This document shows positions 3,346 to 16,926 of a DNA stretch of 22,939 bases, one piece after another; position 1 is the stretch's first letter; every line of letters starts with the position of its first letter. The stretch is from a virus (Duplodnaviria > Heunggongvirae > Uroviricota > Caudoviricetes). The notes beneath the pieces were generated by a model, which searched no databases, had not been told where the DNA came from, and saw only the letters and a list, made by a program, of their open reading frames with translations. The translations under genes were made by a program, and so were the position numbers. The stretch is from IMG/VR virus record IMGVR_UViG_2671181100_000006, positions 1 to 22,939 of that record. One strand, given 5' to 3'.

Positions 3346-3725
3346 TTTTTCTCCTGCTGCGGTGCCGCTGGCAATGCGCATACTTCAACCGCTTTTTGAT
3401 AAATGAGTTTGATTGTCGGCCAGTCGATGGTCTGGTCTTCATGCCAGTCACCTCGCCCCTCACAATCGCCACAGCCGTCACCGTCACATTCAGGACAGAT
3501 GACCACACGGGGAATGCTGAACTCACCAGATAAAGCGTACTTTGCGCCGTTTTCGGCAGTCAGTTTCTTCGGCACCATCACGTAACCATCCCGAATTACA
3601 GGAGGGTTGCCAACTTTGCGGCGCTCCCTATCCAAGTCTGTTTGCAACTGAATCACCCAGCGAGCGAGTTCACCTTTTTCACCGGATTCAAGACGTAAAT
3701 CATCCAAACGATATTTATCAATCAT
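3342..3725 (-). CDS. Hypothetical protein with Cys-rich cluster (CPECDGDGCGDCEGRG), possible zinc ribbon
   Basis: ORF on the track is 3342-3782. I place the start at the internal ATG (MIDKYRLDD...) to minimise overlap with the upstream gene; start is uncertain. Confidence 0.5.
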   Translation of the reverse strand: MIDKYRLDDLRLESGEKGELARWVIQLQTDLDRERRKVGNPPVIRDGYVMVPKKLTAENGAKYALSGEFSIPRVVICPECDGDGCGDCEGRGDWHEDQTIDWPTIKLIYQKAVEVCALPAAPQQEKK

Positions 3726-10373: not shown

Positions 10374-11331
10374 ATTAACAGGATACGTCTGGGACGCTTG
10401 CGCATCTTCGGGGATGAAACTATCCAGCGTGGCAATCATGGCGCGCCTGGCTGACTTCAGCAACGATGAGGGTGTTTGCTGGCCTTCTATCGCGACCATA
10501 TCCCGTCAGATTGGCGCTGGTGAAAGTACTGTCAGAACGGCGATAACTGCGCTTGAGAAAGAGGGATGGCTCACCCGTACGCAACGCCGCAATGGCAACC
10601 GTAATGCATCGAACGTCTACCAGCTCAACGTTTCCAAACTACAGAAAGCGGCATTTTCTCACCTGTCAGTTTCTGACACGTCAAAATCTGACACATCAAA
10701 ATCTGAACCGTCAAAATCTGATGCGTCAAAAATTGACCCCTCAAAATTTGAGGCGTCGGAATCCACCAAAAAAACCAGTTTTGACCCGTCAGAATCTGGG
10801 GGGGATCCGTCAGTAAAATCAACTACTGATCCATCAGATATAAATCCTTCTTGTCCGGACGCTTCGCAACCGGACGAACAGGGCTCTGCTGATGAATTTC
10901 TGTCACGACATCCTGACGCGGTGGTGTACAGCGCTGCAAAGCGGCAGTGGGGCAGCCAGGACGATTTAACCTGCGCCCAGTTCATTTGGGGAAAAATTAT
11001 CAGCATGTACGAACTGGCTGCTGAAAGTGATGGTGAGGTAGTTCGCCCTAAAGAACCAAACTGGACCGCATGGGCGAATGAGGTTCGCCTGATGGTGATG
11101 CAGGACGGGAGAACCCATAAGCAAATTTGCTCACTGTTCAAGCGCGCCAACAAAGATTCGTTCTGGTGTAAAAACGTACTCAGCCCGTCGAAGCTTCGGG
11201 AAAAATGGGATGAGCTGTCGTTAAAACTATCTGCTCCACTCAATAGCTCCCGCCAGGAGTCGTCCATTTCGCGAGCCAGCTTCGATGGGGTTGATTACTC
11301 ATTGCCAGAAAACTCGGGGTTCCGCACATGA
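10363..11331 (+). CDS. Replication initiator (lambda O-like) with N-terminal winged-helix DNA-binding domain and internal origin iterons
   Basis: N-terminal HTH-like region (SVAIMARLADFSNDEGVCWPSIATISRQIGAGESTVRTAITALEKEGWL). Low-complexity linker encoded by tandem 15-bp DNA repeats. Position after cII matches O. Confidence 0.65.
   Translation: MSTKLTGYVWDACASSGMKLSSVAIMARLADFSNDEGVCWPSIATISRQIGAGESTVRTAITALEKEGWLTRTQRRNGNRNASNVYQLNVSKLQKAAFSHLSVSDTSKSDTSKSEPSKSDASKIDPSKFEASESTKKTSFDPSESGGDPSVKSTTDPSDINPSCPDASQPDEQGSADEFLSRHPDAVVYSAAKRQWGSQDDLTCAQFIWGKIISMYELAAESDGEVVRPKEPNWTAWANEVRLMVMQDGRTHKQICSLFKRANKDSFWCKNVLSPSKLREKWDELSLKLSAPLNSSRQESSISRASFDGVDYSLPENSGFRT
10666..10755 (+). repeat. Putative replication origin: six tandem ~15-bp iterons (TCAAAATCTGAnnnn) followed by an A/T-rich tract, embedded in the initiator ORF
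   Basis: Units read directly: tcagtttctgacacg / tcaaaatctgacaca / tcaaaatctgaaccg / tcaaaatctgatgcg / tcaaaaattgacccc / tcaaaatttgaggcg, then caccaaaaaaaccagtttt. Same layout as ori-lambda inside gene O. Confidence 0.6.
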
Positions 11332-12137
11332 GTAAGCCATTTCTCAAATGGGCTGGTGGAAAGTATACCCAGCTGGCTGACCTGTTCGTGCATATCCCGG
11401 CAGGGAAACGCCTGATAGAGCCATTCGTTGGTGGTGGGTCGGTATTCCTGAACAGCGAAAAGCACGCAGATTACCTGCTGGCGGACGTTAACCCAGACCT
11501 GATTAATCTGTATCAGATGTTAGCGGTGGTGCCGGATGAAGTGGAATTAAAGGCCCGCTGGATGTTTGAGCACATGCGGTCACCAGATGGCTATGAGCTG
11601 ATCCGTTCCGAGTTCAACGCTCAGACGCTGGATGCTACTGAACGCGCAGCTGCATTCCTGTATCTCAACCGGCATTGTTTCAATGGCCTGATGCGCTACA
11701 ACCAGGCGAATAAGTTCAATGTGGGCTGGGGAGGCTACAAGGCCCCGTATTACCCGATGGATGAGATGAAAGCCTTTGCGGCTATGGCGCATAACTGCGT
11801 ATTCATGACCGCTGATTACCGTCGGACAATCAGCCTGGCCGGGAAAGGGGATGTGGTTTACTGCGATCCGCCTTACGAACCGATGCCGGGAACAGCCGGA
11901 TTCACTGCCTACGCCGCTGGTGGGTTTAACTGGGAGAACCAGGTAGACCTGGCGAAGCAATGTGTATCAGCCTTTCACCGTGGGGCTCGGGTAGTGATTT
12001 CTAACTCATCCGCCCCGAAGGTTCTCGACCTGTACCGGGAGCATGGTTTTAACCTGCAATTCATCAAAGCGCGCCGTTCGATCTCCTGCAAAAGCAGTAC
12101 GCGGGAAGTCGCAAAAGACGTTGTAGCGATCCTTTAA
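11328..12137 (+). CDS. dam: DNA adenine N6-methyltransferase (Dam-like, D12 class), orphan phage methylase
   Basis: Motifs KWAGGK, FVGGGSV (AdoMet binding) and DPPY (catalytic). No adjacent restriction endonuclease gene. Confidence 0.85.
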   Translation: MSKPFLKWAGGKYTQLADLFVHIPAGKRLIEPFVGGGSVFLNSEKHADYLLADVNPDLINLYQMLAVVPDEVELKARWMFEHMRSPDGYELIRSEFNAQTLDATERAAAFLYLNRHCFNGLMRYNQANKFNVGWGGYKAPYYPMDEMKAFAAMAHNCVFMTADYRRTISLAGKGDVVYCDPPYEPMPGTAGFTAYAAGGFNWENQVDLAKQCVSAFHRGARVVISNSSAPKVLDLYREHGFNLQFIKARRSISCKSSTREVAKDVVAIL

Positions 12138-12146
12138 GGGGGCTAA

Positions 12147-12524
12147 ATGAAACTGACTTTACCATTTCCACCGAGCGTAAATAGTTACTGGCGCGCTCCG
12201 AGCAAGGGACCGCTGAAAGGCAGGCATCTGGTAAGCGAGACAGGGCGCAAGTTCCAGCAGGCAGCGAGAGCGGCGATTATTGAGCAACTGCGGGCCGCTC
12301 CCCGGCCATCCTCTGATCTGGCCGAGGTTCACATTGTGTTGTATCCGCCGGATGAGCGCCGTCGGGATATCGATAACTACAACAAAGCGCTGTTCGATGC
12401 CCTGACTCTAACAGGCGTCTGGGAAGACGACAGTCAGGTTAAGCGCATGCTGGTGGAGTGGGGGAACATCGTGAAGAAAGGGAAAGTAGAAATCACTATC
12501 CGTCGTTTTCGTGCAGCTGCCTGA
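12147..12524 (+). CDS. rusA: Holliday junction resolvase RusA
   Basis: 125-aa protein close in sequence and length to E. coli RusA (LPFPPSVNSYWR..., ...RRRDIDNYNKALFDALT...). Confidence 0.9.
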   Translation: MKLTLPFPPSVNSYWRAPSKGPLKGRHLVSETGRKFQQAARAAIIEQLRAAPRPSSDLAEVHIVLYPPDERRRDIDNYNKALFDALTLTGVWEDDSQVKRMLVEWGNIVKKGKVEITIRRFRAAA

Positions 12525-12536
12525 CGTGGAGATGAT

Positions 12537-13517
12537 ATGAGAGCACTACTAACCCCTGAGATTGCCCCACGCATGGGCGTTGTTCTGCTTCGCCCAGGCG
12601 CTGATCTCATGCCGATGTTCAGGAGAGGGCGGGTACTGATTGAGCCTGCACCGGAAAAATACAGCGACTACGCAACCGGCGCTATCCCTCCCGCCACGCA
12701 GCCACTGGCAGAAGACCCGGTTTTGAAGCCAGTCTTCGAAAACAAAGACGTCATTCTGCGCGCGGGTGGTATCAGCTCGCTGGAGGCCGAGCTGGAGCGT
12801 CGTTTTGAATGCCAGTATCCGCATGGCTCGTGGCACAGCGAAAATTTTACGCTGTTCCGGCATGAGCCTGGCAGCATCCGCCTTTGCTGGGCCTGCGATA
12901 ACCTGGTGCGTGATCAGTACACAGAGACGCTGGCAGGCATTGCGCGTGGGAACCTGGTATCCTGGTTGATAACGGTCATCCGCTCACAGCTGGGGTTCAA
13001 CGAAGACCATCAACTGACGATCCCAGAGTTGTGCTGGTGGCTGGTAATAAACAATCTGGCGCACGTCATCCCTGAATCGCTGGCCCGGAAAGCCCTGCGA
13101 TTGCCGGAAATAAAGCATCAACCGGTGATGAAGGAGAGCGATATTGTGCCGGAGCCAGCGGCGAGCGAAGTGGTGCAGAAAAAGATTCTCGGTCTTCGCG
13201 TAGATCCTGAAACGCCGGAATCATTTATGCTGCGACCAAAGCGCCGCCGCTGGGTAAACGAGAGCTGGACGCGCTGGGTTAAGTCTCAGTCGTGTGTCTG
13301 CTGTAACAAACAAGCAGATGATCCCCATCACCTGATAGGCCACGGACAAGGTGGAATGGGAACAAAAGCGCATGACCTGTTTGTGTTGCCGCTTTGCAGA
13401 GCGCATCACGACGAGTTGCACGCTGACACCGTGGCATTTGAGGAGAAGCACGGCTCACAGCTGGAGCTGCTGTTTCGATTTCTGGATCGTTCGCTGGCAA
13501 TTAGCGTGCTGGCATAG
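12537..13517 (+). CDS. Phage protein with C-terminal DUF968-like / HNH-like Cys-His motif
   Basis: C-terminus CVCCNKQADDPHHLIGHGQGGMGTKAHDLFVLPLCRAHHDELH resembles HNH/DUF968 zinc-binding regions common in lambdoid nin regions. Assignment from memory. Confidence 0.5.
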   Translation: MRALLTPEIAPRMGVVLLRPGADLMPMFRRGRVLIEPAPEKYSDYATGAIPPATQPLAEDPVLKPVFENKDVILRAGGISSLEAELERRFECQYPHGSWHSENFTLFRHEPGSIRLCWACDNLVRDQYTETLAGIARGNLVSWLITVIRSQLGFNEDHQLTIPELCWWLVINNLAHVIPESLARKALRLPEIKHQPVMKESDIVPEPAASEVVQKKILGLRVDPETPESFMLRPKRRRWVNESWTRWVKSQSCVCCNKQADDPHHLIGHGQGGMGTKAHDLFVLPLCRAHHDELHADTVAFEEKHGSQLELLFRFLDRSLAISVLA

Positions 13518-13530
13518 TGGAGAACGCATA

Positions 13531-14109
13531 ATGATTAACCCGTCCGAGGTTGGAAAAGCTGGTGAAATGGTCAGGCTGAAAACGCTGGAGGCCATCTGGA
13601 TTCAGGGGAAGCTGCGCATGTGGGGCCGCTGGTCTTACATCGGCGGCGGTAGTGGCGGCAATATGTTTAACCAGTTACTGGCTTCCGGGAAAGTCACTAA
13701 AACAGCCATCAACGAAGCATTACGCCGGATGAAGAAGTCCGGCATCTCGAAGCCAGAGCTTGAGGCGTTTTTTCGTGAAATACTCGCGGGGAAAAACAAA
13801 AGCGGCCTGGCCTTCTGTACAGACGATGAAGGACTGCTGATTGATAAGGTACTGGGGGCAGTCCTCATTACGGGTGGTCATAAAGAGCTATACCACCTGC
13901 TGGTGGAGCATTACCGGTTACGGAAGAGCAAACGCCGCATAGCGGAAGAGCTCTATGAAAAGCATCCAGACTGGTGCTTTATGACATGCAGACGAAGAGT
14001 TGATACATGGCTAAGTTTGGCAGAATCGATGCTGTACGCACCAATGTGTGACGCATTCGGCACAAATGGCGACAGATTTTACTTGCAAAGTGAGCCAGAA
14101 ACTGCTTGA
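13531..14109 (+). CDS. Q: Late-gene antiterminator Q (phage 82-type family)
   Basis: Start placed at the ATG (MINPSEV...) with GGAG RBS, in frame with the longer track ORF. Motif KLRMWGRW resembles the ERWGAW signature of phage 82-type Q proteins. Followed by a terminator. Confidence 0.65.
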   Translation: MINPSEVGKAGEMVRLKTLEAIWIQGKLRMWGRWSYIGGGSGGNMFNQLLASGKVTKTAINEALRRMKKSGISKPELEAFFREILAGKNKSGLAFCTDDEGLLIDKVLGAVLITGGHKELYHLLVEHYRLRKSKRRIAEELYEKHPDWCFMTCRRRVDTWLSLAESMLYAPMCDAFGTNGDRFYLQSEPETA

Positions 14110-14154
14110 ATTGTGATAGGCTCGGGACGTTAAAGCGAACTGAGCAGCAGAACC

Positions 14155-14186
14155 AAAAAAAACCCGCTTAAAGGCGGGTTTTGTGC
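14155..14186 (+). terminator. Rho-independent terminator after Q (possible tR' or insulating terminator)
   Basis: A8 run, hairpin ACCCGC-ttaaag-GCGGGT, then TTTTG. Confidence 0.6.
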
Positions 14187-14260
14187 GAAAAATAGCCACT
14201 CCAAGATGGCCCATTAAAGCATGGTAAAATACGTGTTAACCCCACAAAGAGGAGTTAGAC

Positions 14261-14500
14261 ATGGCTATTACCCTGCATCAAAAAGAAATCATGATTCTCA
14301 TGACGGACCCCAACTTAAAAGTGCCGGTCCAACACACCAACTTCCCTTTTGAGCATCCATACAAAATTGATTCGGCTATAGAGCAGCTATATCGGATGGG
14401 ATACATTACAGCAATACAGTCGAAATCTGATTCTAGTTGGCTCGCCACTTCAATCACACCAAAAGGTTATGTCTTTCTTAACGAGGCAGGGTTGGTTTAA
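14261..14500 (+). CDS. Hypothetical small protein (79 aa), moron between Q and the lysis cassette
   Basis: Strong RBS AGAGGAG. Upstream extended -10-like element TGGTAAAAT at about 14228-14240. Followed by its own terminator. Confidence 0.6.
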   Translation: MAITLHQKEIMILMTDPNLKVPVQHTNFPFEHPYKIDSAIEQLYRMGYITAIQSKSDSSWLATSITPKGYVFLNEAGLV

Positions 14501-14531
14501 TAGAATTTCAGCAACTGTGTATATCAAAAGT

Positions 14532-14556
14532 AAAACCCCGCTTCGGCGGGTTTTTT
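14532..14556 (+). terminator. Rho-independent terminator
   Basis: AAAACCCCGC-ttcg-GCGGG followed by TTTTTT. Confidence 0.65.
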
Positions 14557-14665
14557 CATTTATGGCCCAGGCTAAAAATTGCATATTAACCGTGAAACGC
14601 ATAAGCCTGCGGCCTGAATTCTTTCCCCTCGTTCTGAGAGGATTCACAGCAATAGAGGGGGACCG

Positions 14666-16357: not shown

Positions 16358-16418
16358 TATTGCTCAAAATTAAATGAGATTTATCTTAATTGCTTTAGTG
16401 CCAGGAAGTAGATTGAAG

Positions 16419-16664
16419 ATGCTGCAATTGGCAGTATCACTCTGGGACATAACAATGGGACAGTATTACTACGTCAATAAAAATGTTCAGGCAAACGGAG
16501 ATCATGAGGTGCATGTCACCGGGTGTACCTTTATGCCTGCATCAGAAAACCGCGTGTACCTTGGAATATTTGAAACCTGCCGTCCTGCAGTAGTAGAAGC
16601 GAAGAAATATTATTCTCAATCAAATGGTTGTTATTACTGCTGTAGAGCTTGTCATACTTCATAG
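16419..16664 (+). CDS. Hypothetical small protein with Cys-rich C-terminus (…NGCYYCCRACHTS)
   Basis: Track ORF 16374-16664. Start uncertain (ATG at 16374, 16419 or 16455); AGGAAG lies upstream of 16419. Followed by a terminator. Confidence 0.4.
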   Translation: MLQLAVSLWDITMGQYYYVNKNVQANGDHEVHVTGCTFMPASENRVYLGIFETCRPAVVEAKKYYSQSNGCYYCCRACHTS

Positions 16665-16682
16665 TTAACCAAAAACAATCGC

Positions 16683-16708
16683 AAGGTCGCCAATGGCGGC
16701 CTTTTTTA
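16683..16708 (+). terminator. Rho-independent terminator
   Basis: AAGGTCGCC-aat-GGCGGCCTT (one G-U wobble) followed by TTTTTT. Confidence 0.5.
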
Positions 16709-16731
16709 TTGCCAGAAGCAGGAGAAGAAGC

Positions 16732-16926
16732 ATGTTAACAGTAAAAGTAATGTCACCAGATGGTGGCGAAGAAATCCATTGCGGCCTGAGCGTTGGTTTC
16801 AACCCCAATCAGCAGAGTATCGCAGTGTCGGGAATGGACCAGAACGTTTTCCTGAAGCAGGGAGAAGTGGCGTACGTGATGAACGCAAACGGAAAGACCA
16901 TTTCCCGTTACGAGCACTTGACCTGA
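16732..16926 (+). CDS. Hypothetical small protein (64 aa)
   Basis: Start at the internal ATG (MLTVKVMSPDGG...) preceded by AGGAG; the longer track ORF would run through the terminator. Confidence 0.5.
   Translation: MLTVKVMSPDGGEEIHCGLSVGFNPNQQSIAVSGMDQNVFLKQGEVAYVMNANGKTISRYEHLT

Follow-up and report, generated by a model that had tools for sequence, protein, structure and literature searches.

The segment at 14187-14560 of the window, by which we mean the whole 22,939-nt stretch of DNA analysed and which is part of a Klebsiella lambdoid prophage, is best read as a moron, a transcriptionally autonomous unit of cargo (probability about 0.75). As far as sequence can test the matter, this cassette has every property of a moron: a patchy presence between like flanks, a promoter of its own as judged from a conserved extended -10 element, a terminator of its own (T2), and a base composition unlike that of its flanks. 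A self-contained moron between Q and the lysis genes was what the sequence-only reading of this DNA had proposed, and the analysis supports the proposal.

All features of the interval lie on the plus strand. Upstream are genes for a Dam methylase (11328-12137), RusA (12147-12524), a DUF968/HNH protein (12537-13517) and a 192-aa Q antiterminator (13531-14109), which matches DUF1133 (1e-93) and Phage_antitermQ (3e-10) and is distantly related to the solved Q21 protein (6P18, 6JNX; E = 2e-5). The region expected to hold the late promoter pR' and the Q binding element (14083-14122) is followed by a hairpin terminator, T1 (14159-14185; hairpin 14159-14182), which likely represents tR' and forms the left boundary of the cassette. 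Within the cassette we located a conserved box, TAGCCACTCCAA (14193-14204), an extended -10 element, TGgTAAAAT (TGGTAAAAT, 14222-14230), a ribosome binding site (RBS) read from the sequence as AAGAGGAG (14247-14254, 6 nt before the ATG), an open reading frame of 79 aa (14261-14500) encoding a predicted winged-helix protein, and the intrinsic terminator T2 (14532-14556), found by both the consensus scan and folding, with its stem-loop at 14537-14550 and six T at 14551-14556. Two holins, a GH19-like endolysin and spanin-like ORFs lie downstream of T2. The extended -10, strong RBS, reading frame and terminator that had been noted at the outset were thus all present, and with Q upstream and holins and endolysin downstream, the assignment of the unit to the Q-to-lysis cargo slot held as well.

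The distribution of the cassette among relatives is that of optional cargo. A BLAST search with the Q-to-holin interval against 50,697 phage records returned 27 records of Klebsiella or Escherichia phages, and the 79-aa gene was present in only 3 of these slot-matching records (PQ351753, MK416017 and MK416007), the contents of the slot varying among the relatives compared; tblastn with three family members identified no phage records beyond the same three carriers. The Q proteins of KY271401 (locus L003) and MK448232 (locus L004) are 100% and 99.5% identical, respectively, to that of the window, yet both phages lack the cassette: the sequence they have in common with the window stops at T1, with nothing beyond 14182 in KY271401, and after T1 the former carries a TciA-like gene and the latter a tRNA-Gly(TCC) gene and a lambda-like S leader instead. 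From the other side, MK422452 (locus L002) has the same holin cassette behind a different Q and is without the 79-aa gene, its match to the window beginning at 14548, inside the 3' half of the T2 stem. Two more holin types occur in the carriers MK416017 and MK416007, and across 24 IMG/VR relatives the cassette is joined to at least four holin types. These comparisons place the left boundary of the cassette just after T1, at ~14183-14186, and the right boundary at or just past the T-tract of T2, at 14548-14569. Over 14180-14540 the G+C content is ~0.42, as against ~0.53 on both flanks. The sequence-only reading would have given up the moron had the gene been conserved in all relatives as a core late gene with a recognised structural or lysis function; the gene is instead absent from MK422452 and KY271401, despite a holin and endolysin cassette of the same type in both.

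The alternative occupants of the slot have some structure of their own. In MK448232 the tRNA-Gly(TCC) gene (L004 2670-2744) is followed by sequence resembling the lambda tR'-to-S region and then by another terminator. The slot of KY271401 (L003 2720-3700) contains, besides the TciA-annotated gene, a short ORF of membrane-like character and a G+C-rich non-coding stretch of ~250 nt (~3390-3640), which ends in a strong terminator directly ahead of the holin leader; ARAGORN found no tRNA in this stretch. A motif, TTCATTTCAGGC(T/C)CA(C/G)GG, was observed just 3' of the pre-holin terminator in the window (14551-14570) and in loci L001, L002, L005, L006 and L008. At least three different holin types are preceded by it, and it may represent either a joint at which lysis cassettes recombine or a leader that they conserve.

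Support for the cassette promoter comes from comparison across loci. TGNTAMAAT has a single match in the 22.9-kb window against 1.67 expected, which is chance level; the window by itself is thus no proof of a real promoter. In contrast, TGnTA(A/C)AAT was found 35-42 nt before the ATG in all 41 homologous loci scanned (17 from homologue context look-ups and 24 from IMG/VR). The element takes the forms TGGTAAAAT, TGATAAAAT, TGTTAAAAT and TGATACAAT, the positions that vary being those tolerated by the extended -10 consensus, and it is kept even where the surrounding sequence cannot be aligned. In an alignment of ten diverged upstream regions (alignment A4), no columns were invariant other than TG.TA.AAT, the ATG and two G positions in the RBS, and the GGAG core of the RBS is kept across diverged homologues. 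The promoter at 14222-14230 has no good -35 element, and it is for lack of a usable -35 hexamer that the consensus scan did not list the site. From the sequence and its conservation we infer promoter activity, a transcription start near 14236-14238 (~7 nt after 14230) and the efficiency of T2. In 7 of the 10 diverged lineages the -10 hexamer is preceded, always at a distance of exactly 20 nt, by the box TAGCCACTCCAA; its register is not -35-like, and it may serve as an operator or as an upstream promoter element. As a repeated operator it was rejected, its sole other near-match in the window being at chance level.

The cassette is bracketed by terminators on both sides. T1, which was absent from the sequence-only reading, has a predicted fold of -14.6 kcal/mol (z = -3.4). 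Relatives with the same Q have a hairpin at the T1 position with a different loop or a different sequence, and our own scan placed a terminator between Q and the cassette promoter in 14 of 17 homologous loci; among the other three, the scan missed an imperfect hairpin in L014, the L021 contig ends 56 nt before the gene, and L020 has none. The consensus scan reported T1 on the minus strand only, our own scan detecting it on the plus strand with the tail TTTTGTGC. Eight T follow the stem on the minus strand, and the plus-strand T-tract is interrupted (TTTTGTG); flanked by an A-tract and a T-tract, T1 looks bidirectional, and no minus-strand gene converges on it. T2 is formed by a CCCGC/GCGGG stem with a UUCG loop followed by six T (fold -10.5 kcal/mol). 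A hairpin and T-tract terminator follows the stop codon by 16-80 nt in 17 of 17 scanned loci, the stems being unrelated in sequence, and in L016 and L020 the gene has a tandem pair of terminators behind it. T2 resembles the single terminator ahead of the same holin leader in MK422452, and on the strength of this likeness it may stem from the lysis module rather than from the gene.

Alongside the moron, the sequence-only reading had offered a second view of the interval, in which TGGTAAAAT is pR', the hairpin at 14532-14556 is tR', and the 79-aa gene sits inside a short constitutive pR'-tR' transcript. An extended -10 followed by a terminator just downstream of Q does superficially look like the pR'-tR' unit known from lambda 6S RNA and from Q21 (6P18/6JNX), in which a promoter and then a terminator lie directly downstream of Q. 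Q, however, loads only at a Q binding element beside a sigma-dependent pause element at pR' (bioRxiv 10.1101/651190; PMC6606751), and a phage whose Q is 100% identical to that of the window, KY271401, has neither the cassette promoter nor anything else past 14182. Because this identical Q comes without anything like 14183-14560, pR' and the Q binding element must lie at or before T1, in the sequence held in common with KY271401; and with pR' upstream of the end of T1, T1 is the first terminator after pR' and hence likely tR'. No second -10-like element that could serve as a pause element occurs between 14231 and the ATG, whereas TGaTAGGCT and TTGAAT are present upstream of T1. The same TGGTAAAAT cassette stands behind four unrelated Q families, which makes one common Q binding site impossible, and in loci with a lambda-type Q both a lambda-type pR' (TTGCAA, 17 nt, TAGGAT) and the pause element AACGATGGG behind it precede T1. 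The cassette thus differs from a pR'-tR' unit in not being co-inherited with Q, in lacking Q binding and pause elements, and in coding for protein, and we consider it highly improbable that its promoter is pR'.

By this comparison the real pR'-tR' unit is just upstream of the cassette, at roughly 14083-14185. All relatives with the Q of the window, those without the cassette included, have inherited the block at 14083-14122 along with the Q gene, and on sequence grounds pR' must lie within this block. Several candidate elements are present there, all on the plus strand: TTGCAA (14083-14088), TTGAAT (14106-14111), which taken as a -10 element is without the -11 A, and TGaTAGGCT (14114-14122). 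Comparison with the Q21 binding element TGAGCA revealed a single TGAGCC (14091) and a TGAGCA (14141), without the 8-bp spacing of phage 21. The DUF1133 Q protein itself exists as two alleles that are 76-80% identical (window versus L001 and L006, with L001/L006 2474-2513 compared), and their divergence is greatest where they align with the DNA-contact helices of Q21, the residues aligned with its DNA contacts included. The DNA at 14086-14103, between the two TTG(C/A)A(A/T) hexamers, also differs between the Q alleles, and 14104-14154 is invariant. That the DNA and the residues aligned with Q21 contacts both differ between alleles hints at a Q binding element at 14086-14103, which may be that of a Q21-like family with an undescribed late promoter.

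The cassette has the likely tR' (T1, part of the Q module) on its left and the lysis leader on its right, and for this arrangement the moron reading predicts two modes of transcription. In the lysogen, sigma-70 RNA polymerase would start at the -35-independent extended -10 element TGGTAAAAT and make a transcript of ~320 nt, carrying a well-translated 79-aa gene and ending at T2. Polymerases from the cassette promoter would never pass a Q binding element or a sigma-dependent pause site, so they would not be Q-modified, and T2 would bar them from the holin and endolysin genes; T2 would in this way shield the holin gene from the cassette promoter and protect the cell from holin expression. Upon induction, Q-modified polymerase from pR', upstream of T1, would read through T1, the gene and T2. 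The 79-aa gene lies downstream of tR' and should therefore also be transcribed by Q-modified polymerase as the first late gene. To that extent the suggestion of the sequence-only reading that this is the first Q-dependent late gene stands; its identification of the cassette promoter with pR' does not.

It is unlikely that the gene is nothing but such a first late gene, purely Q-dependent, with no autonomous promoter and with T2 acting as a second safety terminator. Its position downstream of the likely tR', its orientation with the late operon and its place as first gene after Q wherever the contig reaches upstream would all suit this explanation, as would the lack of a -35 element and the failure of the consensus promoter scan to list the site. 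An extended -10 that is invariant at a fixed distance from the ATG would, however, be pointless if unused, and as relatives whose Q or lysis cassette is identical do without the gene, it has no core late function. Far less probable is that the ORF is untranslated and the unit is a regulatory RNA or a non-functional remnant. The absence of a recognised protein family, the small size of the family and some moderately high dN/dS values might be cited for this, but homologues with as little as 34-40% protein identity retain the length, frame, RBS and N-terminus, dN/dS is <1 in every pair compared, and the protein has a confident fold prediction; there was no Rfam match, and in folding the 5' leader has no advantage over shuffled sequence (z = 0.29).

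The 79-aa protein belongs to a small family. A word-indexed search identified 13 close relatives, an exhaustive HMMER search of 1.84 billion representatives gave 11 matches at E <= 0.001, and a profile search yielded ~31 clusters, from Klebsiella, Kosakonia, Citrobacter and metagenomes; the long repetitive proteins P0016 and P0022, in which a 20-residue stretch was matched many times in the representative search, were left out. A scan of genome contigs with patterns from alignment A1 found no relative. Family members are 79-83 aa long and can be aligned end to end down to 34% identity, and the N-terminus is conserved among homologues together with the RBS. Values of dN/dS ranged from 0.17 to 0.67 and were below 1 in 10 of 10 pairs, those of 0.55-0.67 in some pairs suggesting fairly relaxed or diversifying evolution. 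In every homologue whose contig reaches far enough upstream, the gene is the first after Q, and all placed homologues are upstream of lysis genes, with downstream holins of at least five Pfam families. The Q genes preceding them belong to DUF1133 (Q21-like) in the window and the 24 IMG/VR loci, to PF03589 (lambda-Q-like) in L007, L016, L017, L019, L020 and L022, to PF06323 in L008-L011, and to PF06530 in L012 and L013.

Structure prediction indicates a compact, mostly acidic, stand-alone winged helix that is distantly YjcQ/DUF2513-like and resembles the MarR core. An AlphaFold2 model built from the diverse alignment A3 (pLDDT 89, pTM 0.78) superseded a first model from near-identical sequences (pLDDT 63); its predicted elements are a helix at residues 5-14, a short turn, a helix at 33-46, a beta hairpin (49-53, 60-65) and a helix at 67-75. 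The statement of the sequence-only reading that the protein has no recognisable family proved right in that no Pfam, NCBIfam or PADLOC threshold was passed, PADLOC and NCBIfam giving only scattered matches to single family members, and the homology and structure searches it had called for added this distant likeness without a threshold family. Eight of nine members matched phrog_32916, to which no function has been assigned. For DUF2513 the protein of the window scored 16.3 bits against a gathering threshold of 29.6, and sub-threshold matches were obtained for 7 of 9 members (best member E = 1.5e-4); assignment to Pfam DUF2513 was thus rejected on score, and kinship at the superfamily level with DUF2513/YjcQ is plausible. 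With the profile of the broader alignment A5, matches were obtained to YjcQ of Bacillus subtilis (PDB 2HGC; E = 0.0037), itself uncharacterised, and to BldR, a MarR protein (E = 0.016). The narrow alignment A1 found nothing among solved structures, a viral fold library gave weak generic winged-helix matches only, none with E <= 0.001, and a literature search on DUF2513 produced nothing relevant.

The likeness to MarR proteins is confined to the core. A winged helix-turn-helix core is present, with a recognition helix, a beta-hairpin wing and a "T-x-K-G" wing end as in MarR. At 79 aa, however, the protein is half the size of a MarR protein (~140 aa in total) and is without the N- and C-terminal dimerisation helices. 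MarR proteins contact DNA through basic positions in the wing and after the recognition helix, D-x-R and G-L-V-x-R, respectively, and there the 79-aa family reads D-S-H/S-W and G-Y-I-T-A. With dimer helices and basic contact residues both absent, the protein was rejected as a MarR-family regulator. The family alignment contains no invariant basic residue, and 7 of 8 scored members are acidic (net charge -1 to -7), one being +1.

Our best guess is a small binding module that works in the lysogen's cytoplasm. Tentatively, its target may be a protein, for instance a host regulator or part of a competing phage, which it would block. Only slightly less likely is DNA binding of a non-canonical kind, the product then being a regulator that might act on the TAGCCACTCCAA box of its own cassette; some different role altogether is less likely than either. 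The slight preference for protein binding over canonical DNA binding is due to the acidic charge and the replacement of the MarR contact residues; against it, the fold matches are overwhelmingly to DNA-binding regulators. We also considered that the family is tied to the late switch, the small acidic winged helix, produced in the lysogen, binding RNA polymerase, sigma-70 or the terminator region and so tuning read-through of tR' or delaying the lysis genes. This would explain a position directly 3' of tR' across four Q families and ahead of other cargo, but ordinary modular recombination in lambdoid phages explains the fixed position equally well, and we regard a role in the late switch as rather improbable. 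Apart from this constant place behind tR' in four Q families, nothing about the cassette is even mildly unusual.

Morons in the sense of Hendrix and Juhala include lambda bor and lom and the morons of HK97. The cassette resembles these lambdoid morons in being a single gene with its own promoter and terminator between modules that are adjacent in related phages, in its atypical base composition and in its expected expression from the repressed prophage; it differs in that the best-known morons encode envelope or virulence factors, whereas here the predicted product is a cytoplasmic winged helix. In Stx and related lambdoid phages the slot between tR' and the holin gene holds stx genes and tRNA genes. 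Such cargo, like the 79-aa gene, has Q, pR' and tR' on its upstream side and the holin on its downstream side, and the same logic would be expected, a promoter of its own combined with Q-dependent read-through after induction. Unlike that cargo, the 79-aa unit has no toxin or secretion signal, and a dedicated terminator, T2, parts it from the lysis genes. No specific report of Klebsiella prophage morons between Q and holin emerged from a literature search. The cassette challenges nothing in current understanding and is an ordinary example of a moron, well delimited, with promoter, terminator and boundaries backed by comparison. It is a possible test case for how prophage cargo is insulated from adjoining lethal lysis genes, and it draws attention to a small, rare and uncharacterised winged-helix family in prophages of Klebsiella, Kosakonia and Citrobacter, whose proteins are probably made in lysogens of clinically important bacteria. 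Should the protein affect superinfection, induction or host regulation, it would be one more lysogenic-conversion or exclusion factor.

Where further cargo accompanies homologues of the gene, it lies downstream of the 79-aa gene, examples being an N6/N4 methyltransferase, an FRG-domain gene and a 169-aa ORF. Genes with an Acb2/Tad1 hairpin domain, an anti-CBASS/anti-Thoeris sponge family, were observed shortly downstream of the lysis cassette in L012 (7397-7690) and L016 (6456-6698), both of which carry a 79-aa homologue. In the window, past the spanin region, the interval 16374-16926 contains two small ORFs of 96 and 77 aa without a Pfam match, the 96-aa ORF having a cysteine-rich C-terminus (CYYCCRAC); the G+C content drops to ~0.46 over this interval, and the two ORFs may be further cargo.
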